IMG/VR virus record: IMGVR_UViG_3300011994_000001
Location: 1-53,011 of that record
Strand: one strand, 5' to 3'
DNA length: 53,011 bases
Source: a virus
Lineage: Duplodnaviria; Caudoviricetes
This document shows, piece after piece, positions 22,518-47,700 of the stretch. Both the position numbers and the translations under genes were made by a program. Positions within the stretch are counted from its first letter, which is position 1, and each line of letters begins with the position of its first letter. The notes under the pieces were generated by a model. It made no database searches. It worked only from the letters and a program-made list of their open reading frames with translations, and had not been told where the DNA came from.

Positions 22518-22645
22518 TATGTGGATAATCGAGGATGCTATACTGTTTGTTGAAGTATTCTGTTTAACCTGGGTTGCGATTTTCTTATTATGCTGTATTA
22601 AGTAGAAGGACTGACTAAGTCAGCGATCAAGAGGAGGAGAACTAT

Positions 22646-23119: not shown

Positions 23120-23334
23120 AGGGCGGGAGGCATATGGGGCTAAACTCTGACGAGAAAATATGTAAGGTATGTGGCAAAATGTTTATCTTATTTGACGTTG
23201 CTAATTACGCTTACAAGATAGCGAGGATAAACGGAGCTCACGATTGGTACTGCGGGTATAGCCACTTTAGAATCGGTCAAAAAGAGCATGAGGCTAGAAT
23301 CAAGAAAAGCAGAGAGAGGAAGAGCAGAGTATGA
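23116..23334 (+). CDS. Hypothetical Zn-finger protein
   Basis: CKVCGK.F...WYCGY.H. Confidence 0.55.
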   Translation: MKGGRHMGLNSDEKICKVCGKMFILFDVANYAYKIARINGAHDWYCGYSHFRIGQKEHEARIKKSRERKSRV

Positions 23335-23759: not shown

Positions 23760-23763
23760 GAAT

Positions 23764-25503
23764 GTGAGCAGATTTAAGTACGCTATGATAGATATCGAAG
23801 CTACTGGGTTGAGTAGATTCAAAAACGAGATAACCTATATTGGGGCTGGTCTAGCGGAGGAGATCGGTCAGCCCCTCTCCAAGTCCTATATATTTAATAT
23901 GTTCAAACCCAAGGACGTAGCTAGGTTCAAGAAGTTCTGTACCTGGATGAGAGCTAACAAAATCAAGATCGTATGGCAAAACGGTAAGTTTGATACGCTA
24001 TTTATAGAATGGAAACTTGGCGTAGTTCTACCTATCCATCACGATGTAATGCTACTTGGTACGGCATACGATATGGCGGCAAGCCATAAATTGAAGGATA
24101 TGGGACCAACCTATCTTGGAGTACCTAATTGGGATATACCGCTCAAGGAGAAGATAAAGCCCAATAACCCTATTGTAGAAAAGTACCTAGAGAGTGACTT
24201 GAGCGTACCCTGGGAACTGTTTAACTTCTTCCACGCTAGGATAACAGATAAGCAATGGCTTATCTACAACCAACTTTTAAAGCCTGCCTACCTTATGTAC
24301 AGAAGAGTGGAACGAACAGGTATATACTTGGACCGAAAGAAACTTGCGACCGTTAAGAAAGAGTATAAGCATCAGGAGGTTACCAAGTTAGCTGAGCTTA
24401 ACAGTATTCACCCTATCAACTGGAATAGCCCAGTACAAGTATCCAAAGCCCTATTCAATCAAAACGTAGCCAACGCCCTTCCTGTATTAAAGAGGTCAGG
24501 CAAGACGGGATTGCCTTCTGCCGACGCTAAAGTTCTGAAGAGACTATCCGCTCAGGGTCACGACCTTCCTCAAAAACTATTGGACTATAAGTTCTATTAC
24601 GGAGCAAATACCAAGTTCTTGAATAAGTGGGGAATATTCGCCAGCTATGATGGAAGAATCCACCCGAGCTTTAATCTGTCGATAGCGCGAACGGGTAGAA
24701 CGAGTTGTAGTGATCCTAACCTTCAACAGGTTCCTCGTAATAAAGAACTCAGAACTATGTTTACTGCCGAAGAGGGACGGGTAATGCTAGAAGCTGACTA
24801 CTCTCAAATCGAATTGAGGATTGCGGCAGACTACTCCAACGACCCTACTATGATTAAGGTTTATCATACTCCAGGAGGAGATATCCATACCGAGACTGGA
24901 TGCAGTCTAGCGGGATGTTCTCCAGAGAATCTAAGTAAGGACGATAGATCAAAAGCCAAGCCTGTAAACTTTGGGTTCTTATTTGGAATGATGGCTAAAG
25001 GCTTTGTAGATTATGCTTACGACAACTACGGAGTAATATTCACGCTCAAAGAAGCTCAGAGGTATCGAGAGTTGTTCTTTGCTAAGTACGGTAGGCTGTT
25101 GCCCTGGCATGAAGAAATGGGCAAACTATGCGAACGCGACGGCGGGGTAGAGAACCGCTGGGGTCAATTCCGAGCCTTACCCGATATTTACAGTCGCGAT
25201 TGGGGAGAGAAGTCTGGCGCTCAGAGAAGGGCAATAAACACCCCTGTACAGAGTACCGCGTCAGGGTTACTACTATTAGCAGCTGTCGAGATCGACCATA
25301 CTCTAAGAAAGGAAATGGACCTCAAGATAGTGGGTACAGTACACGATGCTGTCCTCCTAGATATTCCAGCCGATTGCGTTAAGGATGCTACTAGAGAAGT
25401 AAAGAGGATTATGGCTCACCCTTCCGCTATGGATATATTCGGGGTAGAATTCAAAGTTCCAATTATCGCAGACGTAGGCGTAGGTGCTTGGGGCGCCAAG
25501 TAA
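23764..25503 (+). CDS. DNA polymerase, family A, with 3'-5' exonuclease
   Basis: DIEATG, NGKFD, RTGRTS..DPNLQQ, ADYSQIELR, KPVNFG, NTPVQ, VHDA. Confidence 0.96.
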   Translation: MSRFKYAMIDIEATGLSRFKNEITYIGAGLAEEIGQPLSKSYIFNMFKPKDVARFKKFCTWMRANKIKIVWQNGKFDTLFIEWKLGVVLPIHHDVMLLGTAYDMAASHKLKDMGPTYLGVPNWDIPLKEKIKPNNPIVEKYLESDLSVPWELFNFFHARITDKQWLIYNQLLKPAYLMYRRVERTGIYLDRKKLATVKKEYKHQEVTKLAELNSIHPINWNSPVQVSKALFNQNVANALPVLKRSGKTGLPSADAKVLKRLSAQGHDLPQKLLDYKFYYGANTKFLNKWGIFASYDGRIHPSFNLSIARTGRTSCSDPNLQQVPRNKELRTMFTAEEGRVMLEADYSQIELRIAADYSNDPTMIKVYHTPGGDIHTETGCSLAGCSPENLSKDDRSKAKPVNFGFLFGMMAKGFVDYAYDNYGVIFTLKEAQRYRELFFAKYGRLLPWHEEMGKLCERDGGVENRWGQFRALPDIYSRDWGEKSGAQRRAINTPVQSTASGLLLLAAVEIDHTLRKEMDLKIVGTVHDAVLLDIPADCVKDATREVKRIMAHPSAMDIFGVEFKVPIIADVGVGAWGAK

Positions 25504-25555
25504 TCAAGTTTGACGGATACTGAAAAATTATTTTTAAAAAAGTTCTATTTTTGGC

Positions 25556-25584
25556 TTTACTTTAATAGGTATATAGGTTATACT
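25556..25584 (+). promoter_or_regulatory. sigmaA-like promoter (TTTACT family)
   Basis: TTTACT-N17-TATACT. Confidence 0.75.
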
Positions 25585-25633
25585 AAGTTTAGTTAAGAAC
25601 CGCCAAGGCGGAAAACGAAGGAGATAAAATATT

Positions 25634-26134
25634 ATGAGTATTAAAGCTAAAAAAGGCGAACTGGTAGCCCTTATCGGATTTACAGGAATTTACTTATCGG
25701 ATAAAGAGGTTCACTCAGCTACCAAAACCGAGATTACCCTGCTCCACGCGGATGGACGAGAATTGACTTTTGATCGCAAAACTGGTAAGCAAACGAACTT
25801 GGTAGCTGGTAAGGAGCAATACGCTAACAAGATTATGAATCTGGACGAAGCTCCTGAGAAGCCCGTTAAGAAAGCCCGAACACCTAAAGCCAAACCTGTT
25901 AAATCCAAAAAGCCCGCCCCAGTAGTTGACGAAGAAGATGAGGATGACGAGGACGAGGACGAAGCGCCTGCTCCAAAACCTAAAAAAGGTAAAAAACCAG
26001 CTCCAGTAGTCGAAGATGACGACGATGAGGATGAAGATGAGCCAGTCGCTCCTCCGAAGAAAGCCAAGAAAGCCAAAAAGCCAGTCGAAATCGTTGAAGA
26101 TGACGACGATGACGACGATGACGACGAAGACTAA
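25634..26134 (+). CDS. Hypothetical protein with alternating Lys/Pro and Asp/Glu blocks
   Basis: Globular N-domain (GRELTFDRKTGKQTN) plus three KKP..VE-DDD repeats. Confidence 0.8.
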   Translation: MSIKAKKGELVALIGFTGIYLSDKEVHSATKTEITLLHADGRELTFDRKTGKQTNLVAGKEQYANKIMNLDEAPEKPVKKARTPKAKPVKSKKPAPVVDEEDEDDEDEDEAPAPKPKKGKKPAPVVEDDDDEDEDEPVAPPKKAKKAKKPVEIVEDDDDDDDDDED

Positions 26135-26233
26135 GCAGAGTAGCCTGGGGGTGACTACCCCCTCGTTAATGCGCCAGCTAGCCCCGTTACAAGTCGGGGA
26201 GCATAAGCCAGATTCACGAAGGCTGGCGCATTA
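26135..26233 (+). ncRNA. Candidate structured RNA with twister-like elements
   Basis: GGGGGT-GACT-ACCCCC; 12-bp TAATGCGCCAGC/GCTGGCGCATTA; CCCCG-TTACAAGT-CGGGG. Confidence 0.35.
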
Positions 26234-26251
26234 GAGGAGGAAAAAATACTT

Positions 26252-26611
26252 ATGACTAAACCAGAAAAACTCAACGAGGATACCCGAATTGATGCCTTAG
26301 ACCCCGAACAAGTTAAGCTCTCGTCAACCCAAGTTCTGGAATCTGCTCTGGAAGCTGTAAAGAGCGGAAAAATCACCCAAGTAGTTGTACTTGGACTTCA
26401 AGAAGCCCCTGACGAGGATACGATGAGTTACGCAGTAATGTCGGGTATGGCCCTAGTGAACCAAGCTAGAATATCCGCTGGATTCGCTGAAAAGGTCCAT
26501 AAAATGGTTGTTAACCAGTTTGTAGATCGTAAACTCGATTGCGACGGGGACTGCGATAACTGCGACCCTGAGGATAAAGAACGGTTACACCGCGAAGCGG
26601 GTATGCACTGA
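26252..26611 (+). CDS. Hypothetical protein
   Basis: GAGGAGG RBS; C-terminal CDGDCDNC. Confidence 0.65.
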   Translation: MTKPEKLNEDTRIDALDPEQVKLSSTQVLESALEAVKSGKITQVVVLGLQEAPDEDTMSYAVMSGMALVNQARISAGFAEKVHKMVVNQFVDRKLDCDGDCDNCDPEDKERLHREAGMH

Positions 26612-27549
26612 AAGTAAGTTACTCCAGATCGTCAACCTACCAGGGTTGTCCGAACGCTCACTATCTTGGGTATGTAGAGTGTCTAACGACTAACAAGGTT
26701 GTTAGACCTCTATCCTTCGGATCAGATATGCACACTCTTCTCCAATACCGAATTAAGCCAAAGAAACTAATCAAGGCTAAAAAGGAAATTGAGAAGGTGT
26801 ACCGCGCCCTGAAACCCCGAGAGCAGGAGGAGTTAGGACAAAACTATCTATCTGACGTCTTCACCGTGTTTGGGGATTATCAGGAGGTCTGGAAGGGTAA
26901 GGAGTTACCCCGAGAAACGGAACACGATTTTGAAATACCTATGGGAAAGATCAAGGGCGAACCTGTTATTTTCAAGGGTATTATTGACGAGGTGTACGAT
27001 TCCAAGGTACTAGGAGAGCATAAGACCTTTACTATAGCCCCCAAGATGAGTATCCTAGCTATGAATACCCAAGTATGCTTATATGCAAAGGCTCACGAGT
27101 TGGAGACGGGGGAAGTCCTTGAGAGGGTACGCTGGGATTATATCCGAAGTTCTCCAGCGTTGGAACCGCTCTGGCTACCGAAGTCTAACCGATTCAGCGA
27201 AGCTTCTAACTCTAAAATCACGAATTTGAGTTGGCTAAGAGCCTGCCAGAGCCGTGGGATTACCGACCCCCTAGTATTAGCCAAGGCGAACAATTACAAG
27301 CCTAATTTGTCTGACTCTTTCTTCCGTTGCGACGTTGAACTTATACCAGAAATGGTAGATTCTGTTTGGGAAGACTTTAAGTTTGTAGCCAAGGATATCG
27401 TTAACAGGGGTAAGACTAACAAAATCAAGCGTATAACCCGAGATTGCGATTGGTGTAACTTCCGACCTATATGCTATGCCGAATTCACGGGGGCGGATGT
27501 AGACTATATCAAAAAACACGATTATGTATACAGAGAAAGAAAGGATTGA
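26608..27549 (+). CDS. Cas4/RecB-like PD-(D/E)XK exonuclease with Fe-S staple; probable CTG start
   Basis: SYS...Y..CP..HYL upstream of ATG 26728; GIID, EHKT, Q..LY; C-terminal CDWCNFRPIC. Confidence 0.85.
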   Translation: MKVSYSRSSTYQGCPNAHYLGYVECLTTNKVVRPLSFGSDMHTLLQYRIKPKKLIKAKKEIEKVYRALKPREQEELGQNYLSDVFTVFGDYQEVWKGKELPRETEHDFEIPMGKIKGEPVIFKGIIDEVYDSKVLGEHKTFTIAPKMSILAMNTQVCLYAKAHELETGEVLERVRWDYIRSSPALEPLWLPKSNRFSEASNSKITNLSWLRACQSRGITDPLVLAKANNYKPNLSDSFFRCDVELIPEMVDSVWEDFKFVAKDIVNRGKTNKIKRITRDCDWCNFRPICYAEFTGADVDYIKKHDYVYRERKD

Positions 27550-27920
27550 TTATTTTGGATAAATCAACTATGACGGGACAATCTAAGGAGAGCTTGGACG
27601 CTTTCAAAGAAAATAGGAGTAAACTTCTTGGAACGCCTATCGACGCTCTTGATAAACCCCCTACTATCCAGTTAAAGTTTACCCTGAGAACTCCCGAGGG
27701 AGATAAAGTTCAAGAGTCCGAGGGAGACTGCTTCGTTGGTATCTGCTTAGCGGAGGAACCTGGTAGGTTCAAAGTTAATATGCTGGGTGGCGGGGCGTTC
27801 AATATGGATAGAACTCTTGCGATGCTACAAGCTCTTGACCAGATGAAGGAGAAACTTATCAAGGATATGATTTCTAATGATCCTCTTGTAGCGTTACGCG
27901 GAATGATGGGTAGCCTGTAG
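27546..27920 (+). CDS. Hypothetical protein
   Basis: TTGA-coupled start; fills the operon gap. Confidence 0.55.
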   Translation: MIILDKSTMTGQSKESLDAFKENRSKLLGTPIDALDKPPTIQLKFTLRTPEGDKVQESEGDCFVGICLAEEPGRFKVNMLGGGAFNMDRTLAMLQALDQMKEKLIKDMISNDPLVALRGMMGSL

Positions 27921-28654
27921 TGGGCGACGTACTAGACCGAGCAGTCGATATCAGCGAGTTAGGACAGAGAAATCTCTGGGTTATATACGGGAAAAGTACA
28001 AGCGGTAAAACTGGTCTGCTAGCCACTTTCCCAAAGCCCATTCTCTATTTACAGATAGGTGATGACGGTAGCAATACCATATCCGAAGTAGACGGTATAA
28101 AAGCCATACGAATAACCGAGATTGCCGACCTCAACTCAGCCCTTATCGAAGCAAGGTTGGATACCTACTACAAGACCGTTGCAGTGGACACTTTCTCCCT
28201 CCTAGTAAACGAATGGACGGATGTAAACGCTATCCAAAAGAAGAAGAAAATGTCTATGAATATGTGGGGAGACTTGAAGACCGATACTGAGGAATTAGTC
28301 AAGCTAGCCCATATTCTAGCCCTCAAAAAGATCGTGGTTCTAACTTGCCACGAGGTATCTGATTCCATAGAAGGTTTTGAGGATGAGATCACTCCTGACG
28401 TTCGACCTAGCGTAAGTAAGGGGGCTAGAACCTATCTTGAGGGTATGGCAAATTACGGTATCCATACTACTCTTATAACCAAAGATAAACAACAGCCCGA
28501 TGGTTCTATAGCCGAAGTGGTATTGCACGCAGCTCACCTAGGACCAAACCCGTACTACTGGAATAAAACTCAAAAGTCTACTAGTATCAAGCTTCCAAAG
28601 ATTATGATTAATCCAACGTACGCTAAAATTATGAAAAAAATTAAGGGGGAATAA
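27920..28654 (+). CDS. Sak4-like (AAA_24) recombination ATPase
   Basis: YGKSTSGKT, YKTVAVDT, WG, VLTCHE; between exonuclease and SSB. Confidence 0.85.
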   Translation: MGDVLDRAVDISELGQRNLWVIYGKSTSGKTGLLATFPKPILYLQIGDDGSNTISEVDGIKAIRITEIADLNSALIEARLDTYYKTVAVDTFSLLVNEWTDVNAIQKKKKMSMNMWGDLKTDTEELVKLAHILALKKIVVLTCHEVSDSIEGFEDEITPDVRPSVSKGARTYLEGMANYGIHTTLITKDKQQPDGSIAEVVLHAAHLGPNPYYWNKTQKSTSIKLPKIMINPTYAKIMKKIKGE

Positions 28655-28660
28655 TTAATT

Positions 28661-29380
28661 ATGGCAAAGATTAAATTGGATTTTACAGGGGTAGAAAGCT
28701 ATATCAAGTGTGCTGAGGGAGAACATATCTGCGTACTCAAAGAGGTTGAGGAAGTCAAAGCCAAGTCTTCAGGAGCCGATATGCTCAAGTGTGTCTTTGA
28801 AGTATCCAAGGGTAGCTCTACGGGTGCGATCTTGTACGATAACTTCGTGTTAACTCAAAAGGCTTTATGGAAGCTCAAGGGGTTCTTGGAGATTATGGGA
28901 CAGAAGGTAGCAGACGGTAAGATGTCTCTTGACCTATCCAAATTAGTAGGACGAGCCTGTATTGTAAGCGTCAAATACGAAATGTACGAGGGTAAGGAAC
29001 AATCCCGAGTTGACTCGTATCGTAAACTTGAACTGGAACCTTCTGGGGACGAAGATGACGAGGACATCGATGACGAGGACGATGAAGAAGATGATGAGCC
29101 TGTAGAAACTCCTAAGCAAAAGAAAGCGCGTCTTGCGGCTGAGGCAGAAGCTAAGGCAAAAGAACTAGCCAAGAAGAAAGCCAAAAAGAAACCCGAGCCT
29201 GAGCCTGAAGATGAAGATGAAGATGAAGAGGAAGAAGATGACGAAGAACCTGCCGAGACGCCTAAGCAGAAAAAAGCTAGGGAGAAAGCAGAAGCTGAAG
29301 CCAAAGCTAAAAAGAAACCTAAGAAGAAACCTCCTGTCGAGGAAGATGAGGATGAGGAGTGGGACGAAGAGGACGAATAA
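28661..29380 (+). CDS. DUF669-type single-stranded DNA-binding protein with long acidic/basic tail
   Basis: LDFTGVE...EG.H...SSG..ML...F...DNF.L..KALWKLK. Confidence 0.8.
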   Translation: MAKIKLDFTGVESYIKCAEGEHICVLKEVEEVKAKSSGADMLKCVFEVSKGSSTGAILYDNFVLTQKALWKLKGFLEIMGQKVADGKMSLDLSKLVGRACIVSVKYEMYEGKEQSRVDSYRKLELEPSGDEDDEDIDDEDDEEDDEPVETPKQKKARLAAEAEAKAKELAKKKAKKKPEPEPEDEDEDEEEEDDEEPAETPKQKKAREKAEAEAKAKKKPKKKPPVEEDEDEEWDEEDE

Positions 29381-29396
29381 TCAAGGACTACTTGGG

Positions 29397-29421
29397 GGAG
29401 CGGTGACGCTCCTCTATTTTT
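29397..29421 (+). terminator. Intrinsic terminator
   Basis: GGAGCG-GTGA-CGCTCC then TCTATTTTT. Confidence 0.7.
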
Positions 29422-29431
29422 AAAATAAGTG

Positions 29432-29460
29432 TTTACTTTTTGAAGAAAGTATAGTATACT
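29432..29460 (+). promoter_or_regulatory. sigmaA-like promoter for the dehydrogenase-AADT-glycosyltransferase-HAD operon
   Basis: TTTACT-N17-TATACT. Confidence 0.75.
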
Positions 29461-29503
29461 ATTACTGTAGGGCGAATACACTAGTAAGTTGAGGAGGAGA
29501 GTT

Positions 29504-30505
29504 ATGTTAAATGTTAGATCCATCGAACACGGCAGAGGTACTATCCAGGGTATAAAATTTCTGATTGAGGGCAAGGATACGTTGGTAATTACCAGTCAAT
29601 CCGCTTGGTCATCGCTTAGAAAACTGTTGGCTTTTGGACCCGTAAATGTATTTTCAGCTACCTCTGTATCTCAGAAGAGTTTGGACGAGTTACTCGCTAT
29701 GTCTAAGAGGTTCAAGACCATTATCGGTATCGGGGGAGGTATGGTAATTGACTCAGCTAAGTACGTTGCTTGGATTACTGGAGCTAGACTTGTTCTTGTT
29801 CCTACTGTGTTATCAACTAACGCGTTTGCTACGGAAGCAATAGGCGTTCGTACCGAGGAAGGCAAAGTAGTGTATGTAGGTAACTCTCGTGCTGATAAGC
29901 TTATTGTAGACTTCGATCTGTTGAGAATGTCTCCCCCAGCGTTAAACTACTCAGGTACAGTAGACGTACTATCTTGCCATACAGCTACCCGAGATTGGGA
30001 GATAGCGGTTGAAGACGGAGTACTGAGTCACCCCTTAGACCTTCAGGCAGGTCGCAAAGCCCGCCAATTAGTGAACCGTATAGATAACTACTCTGAAGAC
30101 ATTAGAGAGCTTACGGACATCGGTTTGAAGGTCTTATTAGACTGCTTGCTAGATACCGCTGAGATATGTCAACCGCTAGGACACTACCGAGCGGAGGAAG
30201 GATCAGAACACTTCTTATTTTACGCTATCGAGAAGATACTCAAAAGACCGTTTATCCACGGTCAGATAGTAGGCCTGGGAATACAGATTATGAGTAGTCT
30301 ACAGGTAAACAGTACCAACGATATATCCTGTGTTATGAAGGATATCGGTCTTAATATAACCCCTAAGTCAATGGGTATTACCAAGGACGTTCTTAGACAA
30401 GCTTTGGTTGATCTTAGGACGTATCCTCAACCCTGGCATACGATTATTGATAGGGGTATATCAGATAGTTTTATCGAGCAAACGTTGTATTATTTGGAAT
30501 TCTAG
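29504..30505 (+). CDS. Glycerol-1-phosphate dehydrogenase-like (EgsA/AraM, DHQS/Fe-ADH superfamily)
   Basis: GIGGGMVIDSAKY, VPTVLST, SG..DVLS..TA..DW..A, GSEH, HGQIVGLG; ATG 29504 after GAGGAGG. Confidence 0.82.
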   Translation: MLNVRSIEHGRGTIQGIKFLIEGKDTLVITSQSAWSSLRKLLAFGPVNVFSATSVSQKSLDELLAMSKRFKTIIGIGGGMVIDSAKYVAWITGARLVLVPTVLSTNAFATEAIGVRTEEGKVVYVGNSRADKLIVDFDLLRMSPPALNYSGTVDVLSCHTATRDWEIAVEDGVLSHPLDLQAGRKARQLVNRIDNYSEDIRELTDIGLKVLLDCLLDTAEICQPLGHYRAEEGSEHFLFYAIEKILKRPFIHGQIVGLGIQIMSSLQVNSTNDISCVMKDIGLNITPKSMGITKDVLRQALVDLRTYPQPWHTIIDRGISDSFIEQTLYYLEF

Positions 30506-30516
30506 GAGGTTGTGTT

Positions 30517-31470
30517 ATGGATCTGTATAATATACACGGGGATACGGGCGGGGATTGGAGAATGAACAAGTTCAAAGAGTATTGCGACGGAGATATTGAC
30601 GACACGCTTGCTCCTATGAACTGGTTACTCAAAAAGGCGGGGGCTAATCGAGGAGATAGAATATGGGCGTCATTTCTCTATTCTACCTGCTATTGCCTAG
30701 GAACAACGATGTTTATGTATAACGAGTTATTCTATGGTACGCTGACACCCAGGAAATTAGACGAATTCTGGGAGGACTACAAAAAAGATCTGGTATTCCA
30801 AACAGACCGTAAGTACGCGAAGAATCTAAACTGGTTTGTGCCTATGGTAGTTCAGTTTATGGCTAAGACCAAGAGAGACCCAGAAAAGTACTTCAGACCG
30901 CTTCTAACAGGTACGCCCGAGGAAGTATACCGTAAGATGTACAAAGAGGTTTCAGGATGGAAGTTCTTTGGACGATTCTCCACGATACTATTCCTCAAGA
31001 CCCTCATATCTATTCTCCCTATCGAAATGGACTTTGATACAGAGTACGATTGGGCTAATGGAGAAACCACTACCGCGGGGGCTCTTATCTTACACTACCG
31101 CGACGAAGAAGCCAAACAGTTTCTCCTAGATCATAAGATCACGCCTGACATGAAGAAGTATTTTGACGAGTTACTGGAAGAGTGTAAAGGCAAGATAGCG
31201 GGTAATATGCTCCATACCTCATCCGCTTTTTGTAGTCACTTTAAATTATACAAAGAGCAAAGGTACCTTGGATATTACGTTGATCGAGGTCAACACGAAC
31301 TTAGAACTCTACAAAAGAACCTACCTCAAGCTCACGAGCTGTGGGACCGAATATGGATAGCCCGAAGAAGGACTATTGATTGGAAGTATCTTGGGGAGAT
31401 CAACGGTTGGGCTGGTACAAGACCTGAGAAGTGTCATGACTTTATGAAAACTGGAAGGATGTATGAATAA
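30517..31470 (+). CDS. Amino acid:DNA transferase (AADT, aGPT-Pplase2 family)
   Basis: DID..L, W..FLY..CY...T, L.FQTDRKY, FGRFS...FL, C..K...RY.GYY.DR. Confidence 0.82.
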   Translation: MDLYNIHGDTGGDWRMNKFKEYCDGDIDDTLAPMNWLLKKAGANRGDRIWASFLYSTCYCLGTTMFMYNELFYGTLTPRKLDEFWEDYKKDLVFQTDRKYAKNLNWFVPMVVQFMAKTKRDPEKYFRPLLTGTPEEVYRKMYKEVSGWKFFGRFSTILFLKTLISILPIEMDFDTEYDWANGETTTAGALILHYRDEEAKQFLLDHKITPDMKKYFDELLEECKGKIAGNMLHTSSAFCSHFKLYKEQRYLGYYVDRGQHELRTLQKNLPQAHELWDRIWIARRRTIDWKYLGEINGWAGTRPEKCHDFMKTGRMYE

Positions 31471-31643
31471 TGACAGACGCTATAAAAGATACCAAAATTA
31501 ATCTTTGTTCTACTTGCGCGTTTGAGATTCCTTCTTGCGAAGCTAGTCCTGAAGATATTGAGTTCGGCGACGGTCTGAGTAATGATAATGTAATACTTTG
31601 TAAGCATTATGAGCTGGAAGAAGGAATTGTTTATGAGCAATAA
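31470..31643 (+). CDS. Small Cys-rich protein (57 aa, not in ORF track)
   Basis: TAATG coupling to AADT; NLCSTC.FEIPSC...IEFGDG..NDNVILC..Y. Confidence 0.65.
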   Translation: MTDAIKDTKINLCSTCAFEIPSCEASPEDIEFGDGLSNDNVILCKHYELEEGIVYEQ

Positions 31644-32601
31644 TGAATGGCAAGAAGGCAAGCCTTATCGAACTGAGAAAATTAGCAGAAAGGTAGCGGG
31701 ACGAAAGCTTGAGATTCCAATTTGTATCCCGTCCTACGGTAGACCCGACTCAGCTATGTTCAAGATTTTAGAGAAAGAACCCGATCTGCCTATGGTTTTC
31801 TTTATCCGAGAGGAGCAGAAAGAGCTGTATGCAGGATTGAAGGGCAAAGCCCGTATAGTTACTCTAAAGAACGTGGATAACATAGGACAGACCCGAGCTA
31901 AGATTGTAAAGTGGGCTCATAAGCAGGGTTACGAGAATATATTTATGTTTGACGATAAAGTAACCGCTGTAAATGCCCTCGCTCCTAGACTTAGCAGGAA
32001 CGATAATTGGTCGATGAGCAAGTTTACTACGACGATGTATCAAGCTCTTCAAGTTTGGGAATACCTTATCAGAAAGTACAAACCCTGCATGTCAGGAGGT
32101 CTCCACAAAGGATTCAGTTTCTCCCCAGGTAACATCAACGCTGAGCCTGAGATAGCCCCGGGTATATGGTGCGCTATACAACTTAACGTCGATATGTTGT
32201 CTGAGAATGATATTAACTACCGAGACAGTAATATATACGGTCACGAGGATAACATAATGGAGATAGAGGTTATGCAGAAGCGTCTAAAGCATATTTGCTT
32301 CAAGGATATCGAGTTTGATAACATACCTTCCTCCGACAAGTATACGGGCGGGATTCAGGATACGTGCCCCGAGAGCGAGACTAGACTGGAACGGGTAAGT
32401 AGACTATCTGATCTTGTAGAGAAGTTCGTAGGCAAGGGTCACCCTGGAATAATATTTTATACTTGGAAAGACGGAGCGAGATATGTGCGCATGAATTGGA
32501 AATACTGGAGAAAGCATTACTCCGAAGAACCTAAATTGACTAAGAAACAAATCGATCGTTTTAACGTATTGAAATTGTCGGAGGTATCCAAGGATGAGTA
32601 G
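31633..32601 (+). CDS. GT-A fold DNA glycosyltransferase (TET/J-associated, TAGT-like)
   Basis: ICIPSYGRP, IGQTR..I, FMFDD, HED motifs. Confidence 0.75.
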   Translation: MSNNEWQEGKPYRTEKISRKVAGRKLEIPICIPSYGRPDSAMFKILEKEPDLPMVFFIREEQKELYAGLKGKARIVTLKNVDNIGQTRAKIVKWAHKQGYENIFMFDDKVTAVNALAPRLSRNDNWSMSKFTTTMYQALQVWEYLIRKYKPCMSGGLHKGFSFSPGNINAEPEIAPGIWCAIQLNVDMLSENDINYRDSNIYGHEDNIMEIEVMQKRLKHICFKDIEFDNIPSSDKYTGGIQDTCPESETRLERVSRLSDLVEKFVGKGHPGIIFYTWKDGARYVRMNWKYWRKHYSEEPKLTKKQIDRFNVLKLSEVSKDE

Positions 32602-32992
32602 AATATTGGATCAAGCAGAGTACGATTCTCTCCCTAAAATTGCGGCGGTAGACTTCGATGGAACCCTGGCTATTGTAAAAAACTATCGAGGAACTGGCGT
32701 TGCTAATCGCCTAGTAATGGATAGGGTCAAGAGACTGCAGAAAGAGGGCTGGAAGCTTATCCTATGGACCTGTAGAGACGATGAGAACGAGGACATGGAG
32801 TTGACGTCTGCGGTACTATTCTGTGCAAAACACGGGCTATTCTTCGATGCGGTCAACGAGAATATCAAGGAAGTTCAAGACCTTATGGAAGGAGATACGC
32901 GAAAGATATATGCTAACGTGTACATTGACGATAAGTCAATAGTAGACTGGGATAAAATATTACCTTTACTTTTAGAGGAAAGAGTAGTATAA
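32594..32992 (+). CDS. HAD-superfamily phosphatase (copy 1)
   Basis: AVDFDGTL, ILWTCR, FDAVNEN, RK..A.VYIDDK. Confidence 0.88.
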   Translation: MSRILDQAEYDSLPKIAAVDFDGTLAIVKNYRGTGVANRLVMDRVKRLQKEGWKLILWTCRDDENEDMELTSAVLFCAKHGLFFDAVNENIKEVQDLMEGDTRKIYANVYIDDKSIVDWDKILPLLLEERVV

Positions 32993-32993
32993 T
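32965..32993 (+). promoter_or_regulatory. sigmaA-like promoter embedded in the HAD gene 3' end
   Basis: TTTACT-N17-TATAAT. Confidence 0.7.
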
Positions 32994-33036
32994 TGAGTTG
33001 TTGAGGGAATAGAATATAGGTTAGAGAGGAGCGAAC

Positions 33037-33654
33037 ATGAAACTACTTGTAAATATACGCGGGACAAACGGAGCGGGAAAATCCACGATACCTATGGCTA
33101 TGCTAGACGATCCAAAGATGCACGTTGTAGGATGCGGGTACAAGGCTGAGAAGCCCTGTGCCCCGTGGCTAACTGTATTTCCTACCTACGGATGGGTTGC
33201 CTTGGGTACGTACCGAGCTAAGACGGGCGGGATGGATACTATGTCGACCAACGCTGATATAGCCTTTGCTCTAGCTACCGCTTGGGATAGATACCCAGAG
33301 AGAGATATACTAATGGAGGGTATCATAGCCTCAACGATTAAGTCCACTTATGCCGAGCTTTTTGGTAATTACCAGTCTATGGTAGACGCGGAGGAAGTTA
33401 CCCCGAGGAAGATCGTAATTATGTCGTTTGTACCGCCCTTGGAGGTATGCCTATCCCGAGTTCAGGAGCGTAACGGGGGAAAACCTGTTAAAGAGGACGC
33501 AATAGCTGGTAAGTGGAGAACGGTAGACCGAAACGTGCAGTACTTCAAAGATATGGGATTTACATCCTTGCGGATAGATAACTCCAATATCAAGAAGGAA
33601 AGTATGTTCAAGAACTTCTTGCGAACTTGTGATAAGTACCGAGAGGAGGACTAG
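33037..33654 (+). CDS. P-loop kinase, 5-hmdU DNA kinase-like
   Basis: NIRGTNGAGKST, LG.Y....GG.DT, MEG, PLEVCL.RV.ERNG. Confidence 0.82.
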   Translation: MKLLVNIRGTNGAGKSTIPMAMLDDPKMHVVGCGYKAEKPCAPWLTVFPTYGWVALGTYRAKTGGMDTMSTNADIAFALATAWDRYPERDILMEGIIASTIKSTYAELFGNYQSMVDAEEVTPRKIVIMSFVPPLEVCLSRVQERNGGKPVKEDAIAGKWRTVDRNVQYFKDMGFTSLRIDNSNIKKESMFKNFLRTCDKYREED

Positions 33655-33874
33655 ACTTGAGAGTTTGTTCTAACTGTACGCGCTCTTGGTATTGCGAATA
33701 TGCTACTAACCAGATAATATGCTTTAAATACGAGTCAACTCGTAAGTACCGTGTGTAAGCACGAATGGTCCTCTCTTGGAGGTAACCGACCTAAACGCTG
33801 TATACTCTGCGGAGAGTACGAGCAGAAGCCTAAAAACAACTTCCATATAGGTAATAAGAGGAGGAGAGTAATAC

Positions 33875-34282
33875 ATGATAGCCTACCAAGAAACTCCCGA
33901 GCAACAGACGCGAGTAGAAGCCCAAGCACTAGAGGAGCTAGCTCTTACCATGATTAGTCAATTTGAAAAGAAGAATGTTGCGTACGGCAACGCTTTTGGT
34001 AATCAGTTTCAGAAGTACGGTCCCATAGCAGGTCTTCAAAGGCTAGCTGATAAGTTCTCCCGTATTGAAGCTCTTATGCTAGGAGCTCAGAACGGAGTTC
34101 CAGATGAGAGCTTGGAGGATACGCTAATGGATAGTGCTTGCTACGCTCTTATGGTTATCTACGAGCTACGGAGAAAGAAGAAGCTTGAGGAAGAAGATTC
34201 CTTTGTTCCAAACCGCGCTAAACAACCTCCCAAGCCCGCTAAACAACCTTGGGTGGAGAGAATGGAAAACGGCGAACTGTAG
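33875..34282 (+). CDS. DUF1599 / nucleotide-modification-associated domain protein
   Basis: KKN.AYGNAF...RL.DK..RI...ESLEDTL.D.A.YALM. Confidence 0.8.
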   Translation: MIAYQETPEQQTRVEAQALEELALTMISQFEKKNVAYGNAFGNQFQKYGPIAGLQRLADKFSRIEALMLGAQNGVPDESLEDTLMDSACYALMVIYELRRKKKLEEEDSFVPNRAKQPPKPAKQPWVERMENGEL

Positions 34283-34304
34283 AAGATAAGAGGAGGGAAT
34301 AAAC

Positions 34305-35009
34305 ATGGGGTATTTAATTGCTAATAACGCTACTCAAGCTTGGGAAAGTTTGTATTATCAACTAAAAAATCAAGCTAGAAACGGGTTTTTACAACCGTCC
34401 CGAGCGGGAAATGTAGTAGGAGAAATCATAAACGCTGTAACAGTAATCAAGAACCCTCGCCAGGGTATCGTAGAATCCAAGATAAGAAATATGTCTATAA
34501 AATACGCTCTTGGAGAGTTACTTTGGTATATGTCGGGCAGTAACCGCTTGAGCGATATCTCTCCTTACTCTAAAGCTTGGGAAGGTCTATCAGACGATGG
34601 GGAGACGGTAAACTCAGCGTATGGGTACAGAATAGGTTCTATGTTTGGATTTGATCAGTACTCCTACGTGAGAGATATGCTACACAGAGACCCTTTATCG
34701 CGTCAGGCTATTATCCATATTAAAGACCCTAGTGAGAAGATAACTAAAGACACTCCTTGTACCCTGTCACTCCAATACCTCTTGCGGGACGGAAAACTGC
34801 ACGCTACCACGGTAATGCGATCAAACGATATTTGGCTTGGGTTCCCTTATGACGTATTCGCTTTTACCTCTCTACAGGTGATGATGGCTATGGAGCTAGG
34901 GGTAGACGTGGGAGAGTATACCCATATAGCTGGATCGCTACACTTGTACGAACGAGATTTGAAAGGGGCTGTAAACGTTGGAACTACACAAGATAGCGAT
35001 AAAAGTTGA
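34305..35009 (+). CDS. Thymidylate-synthase-family pyrimidine (hydroxy)methylase, dCMP-type Asp
   Basis: YALGELLWY, SDDG..VNSAYG.R, SRQA, DTPCT (catalytic Cys), MRSNDIWLGFPYD, GSLHLY. Confidence 0.88.
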   Translation: MGYLIANNATQAWESLYYQLKNQARNGFLQPSRAGNVVGEIINAVTVIKNPRQGIVESKIRNMSIKYALGELLWYMSGSNRLSDISPYSKAWEGLSDDGETVNSAYGYRIGSMFGFDQYSYVRDMLHRDPLSRQAIIHIKDPSEKITKDTPCTLSLQYLLRDGKLHATTVMRSNDIWLGFPYDVFAFTSLQVMMAMELGVDVGEYTHIAGSLHLYERDLKGAVNVGTTQDSDKS

Positions 35010-44395: not shown

Positions 44396-44440
44396 GAAAA
44401 ATAACCCCGCCTTTACAGCGGGGTATCTTTCTGCCCTTTT
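44396..44440. terminator. Bidirectional terminator between the converging arms
   Basis: ACCCCGC-CTTTACA-GCGGGGT flanked by A- and T-rich tracts. Confidence 0.75.
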
Positions 44441-44445
44441 ATATC

Positions 44446-44901
44446 CTATACGGGAATAGGGGCGGGAGTGTCCTCTGAAGCGTTTGAAGGTACATTTGAA
44501 GCGGGTGCGGTGACTTCGGGGGTAACTATAGGGGTAGGGATCACCGCAGGGCTTATAGGGGCGAAAACTACAGTATTCATTTTAGATAGCGAGTCGTTAA
44601 GGATAACTTTAACCCCTGCCATAATATCGTCAACGGGAATAGGAGTTTTGAACTTGACCAATTCGGTCTGTAAGAGGTTTGAAACTGCGTCGGTTACGTC
44701 TCCTACAGGGAGCACCGTGGAAGGTTGCTGTTTGGCGTCTACATAGCCCTGACCTAGGATATACGATGCCGATAACCCGAGGAGATACAAGAGAGACTGT
44801 TCAGGGAGCTTTAAGTCAAACAACGAGTTAGCTACCACTACCAGGAACGAAACAACGAACGCCCAAAGTTTACGGGATTTGAGTCTTGGTGAGATTGTCA
44901 T
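44446..44901 (-). CDS. Holin
   Basis: RLKSRKLW, two TM helices, YILGQG.VDAK; next to the endolysin. Confidence 0.8.
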   Translation of the reverse strand: MTISPRLKSRKLWAFVVSFLVVVANSLFDLKLPEQSLLYLLGLSASYILGQGYVDAKQQPSTVLPVGDVTDAVSNLLQTELVKFKTPIPVDDIMAGVKVILNDSLSKMNTVVFAPISPAVIPTPIVTPEVTAPASNVPSNASEDTPAPIPV

Positions 44902-44934: not shown

Positions 44935-45702
44935 TTAGCAAAGGGGTAAGACCTTACATGCAAAACCGAGTTTGTTAATATCCAGGATAGCTTGGGGGGC
45001 TTTGTCTTTAGTTACCCTTACGCACAGGTAGATATCGTCGGGAGATATCGAGGTCACTCCTGGGGCGATACTAACGATAGACTTGATAGTATCCAACGTA
45101 ACCGCTCCTTTCTCTTTGTATGGTAAGTTGAATATCTGGCATAAACCCTTGGTATGGGCTACAGCTAGGGCTTGACGGAAGTTTGGATCGCGAAGTCGAT
45201 CTGTATCTCCAACGTTGTTGATAAACCCATTTTCGGTTAAAATAGCGGGCATATCTGTTTCGCGAAGAACCTCTACGTTTTGTACTTTTACGCCCCTTGA
45301 GCGCCATCCTCCGACTGCGGAGAGAAGAGGTAACATAATATTAGCGAAGTCTCCTGCGCGACCTCCCGAGCCTTGGATGAGAATCTCTTCGCCCTCACCC
45401 CCCGCTCCAGCGTTGATGTGAACAGACATCATCGCGTCTACTTTGCTGTCGTTAGCTATTCGACAACGCTCTCCAAGTTCTTTATTAAGATCGCCCTCAA
45501 AGTGTCCTGGAGCATAGTCTCCGCTCCTAGTCAGTACAACGTCTATTCCGCAATATTCCGCTAGAGGTTTGATACGTAAGCAGATATCCAGGGTTAGGTC
45601 CTTCTCTTGTAGACCGTTACCGCAAGCTCCTGGGTCGTAACCTCCGTGACCAGGGTCTAAACATAATTTGGGTCTTGATCCGAGATAGATTATAATACCC
45701 AC
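44935..45702 (-). CDS. Endolysin, N-acetylmuramoyl-L-alanine amidase (Amidase_3)
   Basis: LDPGHGG.DPGA..NGL.EKD, SVH.NA, VLR.T.MPAIL.ENGF. Confidence 0.95.
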   Translation of the reverse strand: MGIIIYLGSRPKLCLDPGHGGYDPGACGNGLQEKDLTLDICLRIKPLAEYCGIDVVLTRSGDYAPGHFEGDLNKELGERCRIANDSKVDAMMSVHINAGAGGEGEEILIQGSGGRAGDFANIMLPLLSAVGGWRSRGVKVQNVEVLRETDMPAILTENGFINNVGDTDRLRDPNFRQALAVAHTKGLCQIFNLPYKEKGAVTLDTIKSIVSIAPGVTSISPDDIYLCVRVTKDKAPQAILDINKLGFACKVLPLC

Positions 45703-45715
45703 GGTCTTAATCCTC

Positions 45716-46102
45716 CTATTGTCCTAGTATCTTTGGAGCAAAGGTCTTAACAAGGCTTAATAGGCTACCGAGCACATAAGTTAATCCAAAGCCCCACAAT
45801 AGAACTTTGTAATACTTATAACTTGCCGCACTCTCTCTAACAGGCTTGTCCTTCAATTCTTGGAGAGACTCCATCATACGAATTTGATTTTCTTTCATTT
45901 CCTTCTGATTATCCTTCGTTTCCTGTGCCATATTACTCTGGGATTCTTGGATCTGCCTAATGAAAATTTTTGTCTCGATATGAGAGTCTCTCATGCTTAG
46001 CATATCCTTACTTTGCTCCTTAGCAGTAGCGCGAATGTCTGACATATCCGACTTAATATGGTCGAACTCCAGCTTCATTACGCAAACGTGATCATCAGGC
46101 AT
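45716..46102 (-). CDS. Coiled-coil plus C-terminal TM protein (XhlA/holin-like lysis accessory)
   Basis: ATG 46102 after AGGGGGTG; coiled coil then one TM helix; first gene of the lysis cassette. Confidence 0.6.
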   Translation of the reverse strand: MPDDHVCVMKLEFDHIKSDMSDIRATAKEQSKDMLSMRDSHIETKIFIRQIQESQSNMAQETKDNQKEMKENQIRMMESLQELKDKPVRESAASYKYYKVLLWGFGLTYVLGSLLSLVKTFAPKILGQ

Positions 46103-46131
46103 AAGTATCTTCCACCCCCTTTTGTTCACAC

Positions 46132-46157
46132 AAAAAAGCAGGATTATTTCGCCCGCT
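46132..46157 (-). terminator. Terminator (candidate attenuator) upstream of the lysis cassette
   Basis: Minus strand AGCGGG-CGAAATAAT-CCTGCT then T-run. Confidence 0.6.
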
Positions 46158-46195
46158 CCGCTATGCAAACTATTTAAGAATTCATAGTATCTGCT

Positions 46196-46228
46196 TTATT
46201 GGGTATCGAAAAACCACCACCACCACAT
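46196..46228 (-). CDS. Candidate leader peptide MWWWWFFDTQ
   Basis: Strong RBS GGAGGTGAGG; ATG TGG TGG TGG TGG TTT TTC GAT ACC CAA TAA. Confidence 0.6.
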   Translation of the reverse strand: MWWWWFFDTQ

Positions 46229-46258
46229 AGTCCTCACCTCCTCTCCCCTGAAGGCTAA

Positions 46259-46522
46259 TTAGGAGGTAGTTATCATAGCATCAGGTCTATGTTGAGGGTC
46301 TTCTGGACCTTTAAGGGCTAGAGTATCAGCGTGTTCTTGAGAGGTTATCCAGCCTTTTGTTAATGCATCGTCAATGTCTTCGATGTAATAGTGATCCGCT
46401 CCGCGTTGCATAACAGGCGTTACGTAGTCAGGACGGGTAAGAGCGATATTGGAGAGTGTATTTATTCCTACCATATATACATTCAGAGCATAAGAGTTAA
46501 CTAAAATTTGATTAACGCTCAT
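46259..46522 (-). CDS. Small tail-end protein (XkdX-like position)
   Basis: Synteny between tail fibre and lysis genes; GWIT..E motif. Confidence 0.5.
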   Translation of the reverse strand: MSVNQILVNSYALNVYMVGINTLSNIALTRPDYVTPVMQRGADHYYIEDIDDALTKGWITSQEHADTLALKGPEDPQHRPDAMITTS

Positions 46523-46523
46523 A

Positions 46524-46853
46524 TTAAATTACCCCCGCTTCAATTAGTGCTTCCAGTAAGTCTTGACTAGTTTGACTATTATCTGAGTTTACTCGCTCCG
46601 CTTGAGCTAACCTGTCTTGGAGAGCTTGATTATCAGCTTGTAGAATCTCAAGCGGGGCTGGCTCTGAAACTTGAATCTCTTCGGTATAGACAACGGGAAG
46701 ATCTGCATCTGCATATAGGTGACTAAGTGCTGATGGTATACCTTGCGCTATCTCAGCAACGCCGTTATCATTGGCCATTTGTAAAAAATCCTCTACTTTA
46801 CCGTCGGGAGGAATAATAAGTATCTTTCTCAAGTCGCTACCTCCATTACTCAA
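46524..46853 (-). CDS. Small tail-end protein with C-terminal coiled coil (fibre chaperone-like)
   Basis: Synteny; LE.LQ.DN..LQ.RLAQ. Confidence 0.5.
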   Translation of the reverse strand: MSNGGSDLRKILIIPPDGKVEDFLQMANDNGVAEIAQGIPSALSHLYADADLPVVYTEEIQVSEPAPLEILQADNQALQDRLAQAERVNSDNSQTSQDLLEALIEAGVI

Positions 46854-47700
46854 TTAATAGGTCAGTAACTACGCCGACAGAGCCTGTTACTCCTGTGGCA
46901 TACCCTGTTCCCCCTGTACCAGCATTAACAAGGATGGTTCCTCGGGTAGTTATTAGTCGGTAGGCTAGTAGGATAAAGCCACCACCGCCTCCGCCTCCTC
47001 CTCCACCATATCCCGTGTAACCCGTTCCTCCAGTACCTCCGTTTGCTTTGATAGTTCCGTTATTTACGATGTTCTTAGCAATGATATATAATCTGCCACC
47101 ACCGCCACCGCCTCCACCGCCAGTTCCTCCTGCGCTACCTGGGGTACCGCCAGCACCACCGCCTCCGCCTCCAAAGGTAGAAGTGCATAGTAATTGATAT
47201 AATGCTAGGGATATGTTTAAGGATGTAACGCTAGCAGTTCCTGCTAACCCTATACCAGCGTTACCGTTACCTGGTGCCCCATTACCACCAGCACCGCCTC
47301 CGCCTCCATTAGCCCCAGCGCCCCCACTACCGCTTGCAGGAGAGCTTCCCCCAGTACCTCCGCCAATACCAGCAGCCCCTCCTGCAGCACTGGTGCCAGC
47401 AGGTCCATTGACTCCAGCCTGCCCGCTGTTATCTATGGTTCCGTTGTTTGTTAGGGTATTTTTAACAAATATCTTGTACCCTGCTGTGCTAAGAGTTATA
47501 CCGCTGTTTACTGTTAGGTTGTCGTAGTACATATCCCTCGTTAGAGTTGTGTTACCTGCGATAGTGACCGTTCCGTCACAGCCTGTTCCAAATAGTAATT
47601 TAGTCTGAGCATCCAATACTCCTTGCTCTAGGTTATTTAGATTGGTGGCTGATACAGGAGTTACGTTATCAACCCAAGTAGTTCTTCCATAAATACTCAC
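46846..47700 (-). CDS. Glycine-rich tail fibre/receptor-binding protein
   Basis: TTWVD..TP.SA.NLNNLE.G N-terminus; FG.G.DG; poly-Gly blocks. Confidence 0.75.
   Translation of the reverse strand: MSIYGRTTWVDNVTPVSATNLNNLEQGVLDAQTKLLFGTGCDGTVTIAGNTTLTRDMYYDNLTVNSGITLSTAGYKIFVKNTLTNNGTIDNSGQAGVNGPAGTSAAGGAAGIGGGTGGSSPASGSGGAGANGGGGGAGGNGAPGNGNAGIGLAGTASVTSLNISLALYQLLCTSTFGGGGGGAGGTPGSAGGTGGGGGGGGGRLYIIAKNIVNNGTIKANGGTGGTGYTGYGGGGGGGGGGFILLAYRLITTRGTILVNAGTGGTGYATGVTGSVGVVTDLLIE

Follow-up and report, generated by a model that had tools for sequence, protein, structure and literature searches.

A mini-ORF in front of the lysis genes

The DNA studied here is IMG/VR record IMGVR_UViG_3300011994_000001, from a virus of the Caudoviricetes; its 53,011 nucleotides were analysed as a whole and are called the window below. 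On the minus strand, in the gap that separates the first lysis gene from the last of the tail-region genes, lies a very short open reading frame (ORF) that encodes MWWWWFFDTQ and that we call the mini-ORF (table 1). Its start codon is followed by four TGG codons and then by TTT, TTC, GAT, ACC and CAA, and an extended Shine–Dalgarno sequence precedes it. A first-pass annotation, made from the sequence alone, had reported this ribosome-binding site (RBS) and the 10-codon Trp/Phe ORF, and rereading of the minus strand gave the same features at the same coordinates.

The mini-ORF exceeds chance expectation in the window. Indeed, TGGTGGTGG is confined to it within the 53 kb, with two overlapping matches for 0.12 expected. 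Counting both strands (106 kb), at least four aromatic codons among the six that follow ATG, ATC or ATT occur at 12 sites, and the mini-ORF is the sole site among these at which all six codons are aromatic. It displays the features expected of a leader peptide, namely a short ORF with an RBS and tandem regulatory codons (four TGG, two Phe) that is conserved in relatives. No tRNA genes were found in the window; the phage therefore supplies no tRNA-Trp. As a separate observation, the +2 frame of ATGTGG holds a GTG, and by eye a 14-codon Val-run ORF can be read there, ending at a TGA about 10 nucleotides (nt) past the stop codon of the Trp frame.

Table 1. Features of the leader and lysis region of the window, in the direction of transcription
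Feature	Positions	Strand	Description	Basis
87-aa (amino acid) ORF	46259..46522	minus	last gene before the mini-ORF, upstream of the leader	ORF list
Extended Shine–Dalgarno sequence	46241-46235	minus	GGAGGTG; 6-nt spacer to the mini-ORF ATG	
Mini-ORF	46228..46196	minus	MWWWWFFDTQ; 10 codons and TAA (ATG 46228-46226; four TGG 46225-46214; TAA 46198-46196)	read from sequence
Val-run ORF, +2 frame	46228-46184	minus	MVVVVFRYPIKQIL	by eye
Proposed antiterminator arm	46197-46191	minus	AAAGCAG	
Predicted local hairpin	46194..46165	minus	GCAGAUACUAU..AUAGUUUGC	minimum-free-energy structure, ribosome-free and with a ribosome on the Trp codons
Weak intrinsic-terminator-like hairpin	46159..46132	minus	GGAGCGGG / 9-nt loop / CCUGCUUU, then U-run; arms AGCGGG (46157-46152) and CCTGCT (46142-46137); six-T run (46137-46132)	folding
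Complement of the proposed arm	46141-46135	minus	CTGCTTT	
RBS of first lysis gene	46120-46111	minus	AGGGGGTGGA	
First lysis-cassette gene	46102..45716	minus	128 aa; coiled-coil-like N-terminus, C-terminal hydrophobic anchor (XhlA-type architecture)	
Endolysin	44935..45702	minus	N-acetylmuramoyl-L-alanine amidase	Pfam Amidase_3, E 5e-39; phrog_435 endolysin, E 1.6e-43
Holin-like membrane protein	44446..44901	minus	151 aa	phrog_9987 holin, E 1.4e-6
Strong terminator	44424..44404	minus	8-bp stem, 6 G-C pairs, T-run; closes the late/lysis unit	

The genes downstream of the mini-ORF encode a membrane-anchor protein, an endolysin and a holin-like protein; none of them makes or handles Trp, as the genes behind a Trp attenuator would. 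The endolysin and holin named by the first-pass annotation were matched by profile searches, and only its 'XhlA-like' label for the first gene had to be narrowed. The first lysis protein of the window has no Pfam or PHROG family and does not match Pfam XhlA (PF10779), so that the likeness is one of architecture. In Bacillus prophage PBSX the lysis genes run xhlA-xhlB-xlyA; the XhlA of PBSX and the first lysis protein are alike in their coiled-coil-like N-terminus, C-terminal anchor and first position in a cassette that also encodes an amidase and a holin, and differ in that no sequence membership is detectable: none of the 39 members of the homologue alignment matches Pfam XhlA, nor do they match any other family consistently, and there is no PHROG match. 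Upstream, the 87-aa ORF has no Pfam or PHROG match; a similar small ORF (ALAKGYISQEHYD versus ALTKGWITSQEHAD) also stands upstream of the leader in two of the loci found by the pattern search below (L266 and L305).

Conservation in front of related lysis genes

The family of the first lysis protein comprised 12 clusters in one search and 57 representatives at E up to 0.001. The DNA around the homologues was taken from IMG/VR, from JGI metagenomes, from a Desulfosporosinus genome bin and from another genome of its class. Identical leaders were merged (L007 = L012 = L013 = L014; L008 = L015; L001 = L011; L016 = L263 = L312), which left 14 distinct relatives. All are uncultivated, and the loci are mutually related, so that locus counts here and below do not represent independent events.

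A mini-ORF of 6-15 codons, with a Shine–Dalgarno sequence, an ATG, ATC or ATT at the start position and an aromatic run, is present in 13 of the 14 distinct relatives, 39-145 nt upstream of the first lysis gene (table 2). The presence of conserved Trp-run ORFs before the lysis genes of related phages had been set beforehand as a check on the first-pass annotation, and this is what was seen. By eye, in the absence of an alignment, the remaining intergenic DNA is not visibly alike among the relatives. The upstream neighbours differ as well: the window has tail-region genes there, and L001 a repressor and an integrase. In L005-L008 the neighbour is a small protein that looks secreted, with an N-terminus like a signal peptide and a segment rich in His (..HSRHHHHHFFQKHH..); it is encoded about 100-330 nt upstream of the mini-ORF, between an upstream terminator and the leader.

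Table 2. Mini-ORF peptides (a codon in brackets stands at the start position in place of ATG)
Locus	Peptide	Found through
L001	MFWFWWFVSMASF	first lysis protein
L002	MFWFWRLMSTVTSL	first lysis protein
L003	MGWWWWFLMVNVIKL	first lysis protein
L004	MWWWFFAMLV	first lysis protein
L005	(ATC)WWWYWFYR	first lysis protein
L006	MWWWWWF	first lysis protein
L007	(ATC)WWWYFFYR	first lysis protein
L008	(ATC)WWWWWFMSIMNTL	first lysis protein
L009	(ATT)WWWWL	first lysis protein
L010	(ATT)WWWFLSFMMMI	first lysis protein
L016	MWWWWFFITSM	first lysis protein
L264	MWYFLWWL	first lysis protein
L313	MWWYWWLFTVAIR	first lysis protein
L266, L305, L269	MWWWFWSMLVNL	pattern scan
L275	MWWWLWLSVVSVVGM	pattern scan
L256	MWWWYLYWWRY	pattern scan
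L290, L168, L280	MWWWYTWWWR	pattern scan

Among isolated phages in GenBank, neither blastn at the DNA level nor tblastn at the protein level gave a match. ORF87 searched in viral contigs, and a two-sequence alignment or the KIRTE subgroup searched in genome contigs, yielded no further relatives; one further scan returned the Desulfosporosinus contig alone. The clade would appear to consist of uncultivated phages of Gram-positive anaerobes, a host assignment drawn only from the Desulfosporosinus bin and the one genome of the same class.

Searches independent of the downstream gene

An exhaustive scan of IMG/VR with the pattern AGGTG-N5-9-ATGTGGTGGTGG retrieved 48 stretches, eight of which are intergenic and hold ORFs of 10-15 codons (table 2). 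Among the other 40, 39 lie inside open frames of at least 115 codons; the last, L292, is covered by 81 codons only, and its coding status is taken from the identical L304, which has a 264-codon frame. All seven intergenic matches examined (all but L269) stand 12-124 nt before a small gene encoding a coiled coil and a membrane anchor. A Pfam amidase lies downstream of the anchor gene in the five loci tested (L266, L275, L290, L313 and L001), and these amidases belong to two families, Amidase_3 and Amidase_2; in L280, an endolysin-like gene was recognized downstream by eye. Holin-like homologues follow the endolysin in L001, L275 and L313 (N-terminal similarity judged by eye, without alignment).

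The first protein of the L256 type was compared with the family of the window and rejected as a homologue (hhalign probability 3%); architecture is all that the two have in common. As this first gene is not detectably homologous, the link with the mini-ORF extends beyond one protein family.

Other patterns were less productive. An exact 18-mer scan of IMG/VR gave nine matches, all of them without an RBS and several visibly inside Gly-rich genes (Rossmann-fold N-termini). Loose patterns with ATN at the start position mostly returned Gly-rich genes, and only L256 and L168 were useful among the matches listed. We also considered mimicry of a host sequence: the Desulfosporosinus bin contains ATGTGGTGGTGG at the mini-ORF locus alone, and 112 genomes of the same class, searched for the pattern together with an RBS, gave one chance site only, by eye in a uvrB-type helicase gene. 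This pattern is a narrow one, which misses the bin's own GGGTGGTG-type site.

In four of the pattern loci (L256, L290, L168 and L280), a conserved GC-rich long hairpin followed by a T-run was seen about 100-190 nt upstream of the mini-ORF. Its arms (CAGGCC.. / ..GGCCTG) enclose GGGGGTGG and CACCACC, and a conserved stretch containing GGGGGTGGGATGACATATGGATGGATGG comes next. No Rfam family matches this hairpin, which may act as a complex terminator or belong to a structured RNA.

What is conserved in the leaders

Over the 18 distinct leaders, 93 of the 107 codons at positions 2-7 encode Trp, Phe or Tyr (hand count). Substitutions of Trp are mostly to Phe or Tyr and take two base changes (TGG to TTT or TAC), as in L001, L005, L007, L264 and L313, and some leaders, such as MFWFWWF.. 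and MWYFLWWL, show little TGG repetition. These two properties argue for a reading frame under selection on aromatic residues or codons, and not for a GGU-repeat RNA motif. The start position is ATG in 13 loci, ATC in three and ATT in two, that is, it varies at the third base only. By eye, a site of the (A/G)GGTG type lies 5-9 nt upstream of the start in 16 of the 18 loci. Beyond the aromatic run, the tails have neither a common length nor a common sequence.

Constraint is also visible locally. Between L266 and L305, 100% identity extends over a 93-nt block that takes in the RBS, the entire mini-ORF and the start codon of the next gene; the flanking coding DNA is more diverged, about three quarters identical by eye, with a mean of 87% over the whole alignment. 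Codons beginning with U are as prominent as aromatic ones (97 of 107 versus 93 of 107, hand count), Leu being encoded three times by UUR and five times by CUN. With counts this close, a read-out through tRNA modification at position 37 is inseparable from selection for aromatic residues.

Leader folding and the proposed antitermination switch

The first-pass annotation had placed an intrinsic terminator between the mini-ORF and the lysis genes. A hairpin with a T-run is indeed present there, starting 37 nt past the mini-ORF stop, but it is weak: its stem has a ΔG of -7.9 kcal/mol, three of its pairs are G-U, and it was not among the terminators called by a consensus scan. A looser, home-made scan calls it at a ΔG of -7.2. 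Taken in its entirety, the leader is no more stably folded than its shuffled counterparts (z = -0.05). Rfam gave no relevant match at E up to 10 for positions 45500-46900 of the window, and a search of 11 related loci (E up to 0.1) returned only an unrelated tRNA, whose gene lies in L266 (positions 4055-4128, minus strand; Rfam RF00005, 63.9 bits), about 3 kb downstream of the lysis cassette.

A switch had been proposed on the basis of AAAGCAG, which overlaps the mini-ORF stop codon and is, as claimed, the exact reverse complement of CTGCTTT in the 3' part of the terminator. We folded the window leader to the end of the terminator stem, forcing the ribosome footprint to be single-stranded; the calculation is thermodynamic, assumes the footprint and ignores kinetics. 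Predicted pairing of the terminator's inner seven pairs was 0.87-0.93 with no ribosome, 0.90-0.96 with a ribosome on the Trp codons and 0.86-0.99 with a ribosome at the stop codon, the outermost G-U pair remaining at 0.39-0.49 in all three states. The corresponding values for AAAGCAG with CUGCUUU were at most 0.03, at most 0.04 and 0. The proposed switch is thus not borne out by the folding, in which the terminator stays formed whatever the ribosome state. The GCAG of the proposed arm is predicted to be sequestered by the local hairpin at 46194-46165, and this is the competing GCAG..UUGC structure about which the first-pass annotation itself had warned.

Among the 18 loci, a terminator-like hairpin between the mini-ORF and the first lysis gene was found in eight by our permissive home-made scan, with an onset that varies from 7 to 44 nt past the stop codon. 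The hairpins of L001 and L002 lack a U-run, and L005-L008, L256, L266, L290 and L313 have none. As the hairpin occurs in so few loci and at such variable distances, there is no common attenuator geometry. The attenuator layout first perceived in the window stands for its leader ORF, with RBS and tandem Trp codons, and fails for its regulatory part, since no antiterminator is predicted. On this modelling, a classical attenuator is not the common mechanism of these loci, nor is it predicted even in the window.

Other possible read-outs

Two of 17 loci have a geometry in which a terminating ribosome would cover the next RBS, namely the L266 type (12-nt spacer) and the L290 type (21-nt spacer). 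The spacer of the window measures 93 nt, which makes such occlusion impossible there. The downstream hairpin of L003 begins 7 nt past the stop codon, and those of L001 and L002 no more than about 7 nt from it; a terminating ribosome would therefore melt these hairpins.

Hairpins also occur on the other side of the leader. According to the scan, an upstream terminator-like hairpin ends 20-41 nt before the start in nine of 18 loci, L001 having a nearer one by eye; the window has none before the mini-ORF. With these upstream hairpins added to the downstream ones, the leader is often boxed in, and both sides are flanked in L003, L004, L009, L010 and L016 (L275 is more doubtful). Scan and inspection taken together, upstream hairpins with a T-run stand at a rather constant distance, 20-45 nt before the mini-ORF start, in L001, L002, L003, L004, L009, L010, L016, L266, L275 and L313, and are followed in several of these loci by ..TTTATGC.

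Comparison with known systems

Like the trpL and pheL leaders, the element is a short ORF with an RBS and early tandem Trp/Phe codons in the leader of an operon, and the window also has a hairpin with a U-run. Unlike them, it precedes lysis genes and not Trp or Phe biosynthesis genes, its codons mix Trp, Phe and Tyr, no exclusive antiterminator is predicted, and a terminator is missing from many loci. Another parallel is the rtpLP leader of the anti-TRAP (rtpA) operon of B. subtilis, which Chen and Yanofsky (2003, 2004) reportedly found to have about 10 codons with three consecutive Trp codons, and in which the terminating ribosome is said to cover the RBS of the next gene. The ten codons and four consecutive Trp codons of the window fit the reported size of that leader; its occlusion geometry would be shared by the L290 type and by the L266 type, where only 2 nt separate the stop from the site, and not by the window, with its long spacer. 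Unlike rtpLP, no T-box was found by Rfam before the mini-ORF in the window or in 11 related loci, and the gene downstream is here a lysis protein.

Mycobacterial polycysteine short ORFs are ribosome-pausing sensors for a downstream operon and have no classical terminator (Canestrari et al., 10.1101/834739). They share with the mini-ORF a run of codons for one rare amino acid upstream of operon genes; they differ in being leaderless, in serving cysteine metabolism and in that the stalled ribosome opens a duplex that hides an RBS, no such duplex being predicted here. PepNL (PMC11890864) shows that a 14-residue nascent chain can arrest a ribosome, and PepNL and YfmH (10.1101/2020.04.20.051573) are leader ORFs of 14-23 codons that control downstream genes in E. 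coli or B. subtilis. BmrB is likewise described as a small leader ORF whose translation controls downstream genes (PMC4191407). None of the three is a Trp run and none stands in a phage lysis cassette. If the mini-ORF belonged with nascent-peptide arrest leaders of the ErmCL, TnaC or PepNL kind, the conserved aromatic run near its N-terminus would be the candidate stalling motif. In yeast, more than 11 consecutive Trp residues were needed for arrest (PMC7913769); compared with this threshold, the 3-5 Trp residues found here make arrest by poly-Trp in the ribosomal tunnel doubtful. Full-text searches of open-access papers and bioRxiv found no description of a Trp-run leader before phage lysis genes.

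Genomic setting of the window

By Pfam, the minus strand of the window encodes terminase, portal, protease, capsid, tape-measure chaperone and tail genes, and the plus strand replication and thymidine-hypermodification genes; no integrase family was matched among the window ORFs scanned. The late genes extend from about 12.2 kb to position 1 and continue from 53 kb down to 44.4 kb of the 53,011 bases. From this course, the lysis cassette is the last part of a long late unit, an operon of about 21 kb.

Three further observations concern this gene complement. A thymidine-hypermodification cluster (21450-35006, plus strand) includes two ORFs with a 5-hydroxymethyldeoxyuridine DNA kinase domain, an amino acid:DNA transferase, TET-associated glycosyltransferase-like and thymidylate-synthase-like proteins and a deoxycytidine monophosphate deaminase; judging from these genes, the phage DNA probably carries a hypermodified thymine. 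In the tail region, a 284-aa protein (46846-47700, minus strand) displays long Gly runs (GGGGGAGG.., GGGGGGGGG) and matches only phrog_13336, of unknown function. Lastly, a 405-aa ORF with a polysaccharide deacetylase domain (7297-8511, minus strand) is found inside the head-morphogenesis module, between portal and terminase.

Interpretation

The mini-ORF is present and conserved, is linked to lysis cassettes and has the features of a translation start. Very probably it has a function in the lysis cassette and is translated, or at least read, by ribosomes, and it is probably a real control element of lysis. Something can be said for a chance ORF, or for an RNA or DNA motif (a GGU repeat) unlinked to translation: (TGG)n is a simple repeat, all nine 18-mer matches and 40 of the 48 pattern stretches were counted as chance occurrences in Gly- or Val-rich genes, and the leader is not unusually structured. 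Chance or a bare motif nevertheless leaves unexplained the fixed spacing between RBS and start, the in-frame Phe and Tyr codons past the repeat, the stop codon within 15 codons in every locus and the members with little TGG repetition. The linkage to lysis, seen in nearly all homology-selected loci (13 of 14) and in all seven examined pattern-selected ones, also speaks against it, and we regard it as highly improbable.

As to how the element works, we lean, with slightly less than an even chance of being right, towards a translated leader acting in cis, in which the time that ribosomes dwell on the aromatic run tunes downstream expression through locus-specific read-outs; the cis action, the dwell signal and its direction are all part of what we infer. 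A ribosome would load at the extended Shine–Dalgarno sequence and then decode the Trp/Phe/Tyr run at positions 2-7, and its dwell time or position on the run would act in cis to set the output of the first lysis gene, the endolysin and the holin. The read-out would depend on the locus: in the window only a weak, apparently constitutive terminator could serve, some other loci offer the hairpin 7 nt past the stop, and in several nothing is visible. We favour this cis-acting leader because of conservation found both by homology and by pattern, rarity, codon content, the start position, local constraint and the occlusion geometry of some loci. In a more specific form, the ribosome would be a sensor gating the lysis cassette on charged tRNA-Trp, or on aromatic amino acid supply more widely. 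Late in infection, depletion of the scarcest amino acid would in this way be tied to the timing of lysis, and one conserved sensor would be joined to interchangeable read-outs (terminator, RBS occlusion, mRNA stability), as riboswitch aptamers are to varied expression platforms. This form appears doubtful to us.

Several results weigh against a dwell-dependent leader acting in cis. No RNA structure ties ribosome position to the read-out; terminator pairing in the window is unmoved by the ribosome masks, and 10 of the 18 loci have no downstream terminator-like hairpin. When the predicted accessibility of the next RBS in 17 loci was compared between the ribosome-free leader and leaders occupied at the aromatic codons or at the stop, the shift was at most 0.15 and inconsistent in sign in the 15 loci without ribosome overlap; the rise in L266 and L290 is an artefact, as the mask overlaps the scored window. 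The ATC or ATT at the start position of five loci is expected to initiate poorly, and by eye a GTG or TTG in the +2 frame of these loci could open a Val/Leu peptide in place of the aromatic one; AUGUG is reported to serve as a start for two frames in E. coli (PMC9841429). The replacement of Trp by Phe or Tyr points to selection on the amino acid, possibly on a peptide product, rather than to sensing of tRNA-Trp alone. Finally, one homologous locus, L314, has no mini-ORF; it is the weakest homologue (E 3.4e-5, 60 of 113 profile positions), and its protein has no anchor and lies outside any lysis context.

A serious rival is the view that the micro-peptide itself is the product, a very hydrophobic, formyl-Met-Trp/Phe-rich chain of 6-15 residues acting in trans in lysis, perhaps on the membrane or in concert with the first lysis protein. 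The constraint does look like aromaticity at the amino-acid level, given the count at positions 2-7 and the two-base changes; no RNA structure or read-out is conserved across loci; the ORF always accompanies the same membrane-anchor gene, whether Amidase_3 or Amidase_2 follows; and the five loci with hairpins on both sides resemble separate small units. Yet products of 6-7 residues (MWWWWWF, (I)WWWWL), with tails that share neither length nor sequence, would be unusual, weak ATC or ATT starts occur in five of 18 loci, and the ORF lists for the surroundings of the examined loci showed neither a modifying enzyme nor an exporter. We consider a trans-acting peptide rather unlikely. The non-ATG starts would be better accommodated if binding mattered above product, as in a constitutive ribosome-loading element whose strong RBS and slow mini-ORF would shield the lysis mRNA against decay from its 5' end, or restore the coupling between translation and transcription, with nothing being sensed. 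Hairpins combined with an RBS act as 5' stabilisers, and stalling stabilises erm mRNAs in Bacillus. The extended site complements the 3' end of 16S rRNA in 16 of 18 loci (by eye), and the upstream terminator-like hairpins (nine of 18 loci by scan, and L001 by eye) point the same way. Ribosome loading nevertheless does not explain why codons 2-7 should be aromatic and not arbitrary; the window lacks the upstream hairpin, and its leader stands near the end of the late operon of about 21 kb, not at a 5' end. We judge it, too, to be rather unlikely.

The mechanism first proposed for the window, in which a stall on the Trp codons frees AAAGCAG to pair with CUGCUUU and block the terminator, while a ribosome that has reached the stop codon covers AAAGCAG so that transcription terminates, now seems very unlikely. 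All its parts are present (the Trp run, the exact 7-nt complement and the hairpin with its U-run), and the footprint geometry permits it, as AAAGCAG begins within the stop codon. The antiterminator pairs are, however, negligible beside those of the terminator in every ribosome state, GCAG being predicted to be held by the local hairpin, and a 7-nt A/U-rich complement within about 60 nt would arise by chance in a few percent of cases (rough estimate). No equivalent complement is apparent by eye in the relatives, where no systematic search was made; and the patchy downstream hairpins, two of them without a U-run, together with the missing Rfam leader family, fit such a device poorly.

Significance

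Whichever read-out applies, the mini-ORF is useful in annotation for recognizing lysis cassettes that begin with a gene without a family, and, being short, sharply defined and easily mutated, it is directly testable. So far its range is narrow and comprises uncultivated metagenome phages, a Desulfosporosinus bin and a single further genome from that class. Should the aromatic peptide of 6-15 residues be active in its own right, it would rank with the smallest functional gene products of phages. The timing of lysis is a central fitness trait of phages that, to our knowledge, has been explained almost entirely by holin/antiholin protein clocks and by late-promoter control. If the leader is indeed read by ribosomes, it would put the leader-peptide principle to a new use, beyond amino-acid and resistance operons, and would add a translational, possibly metabolic, input to the lysis decision.

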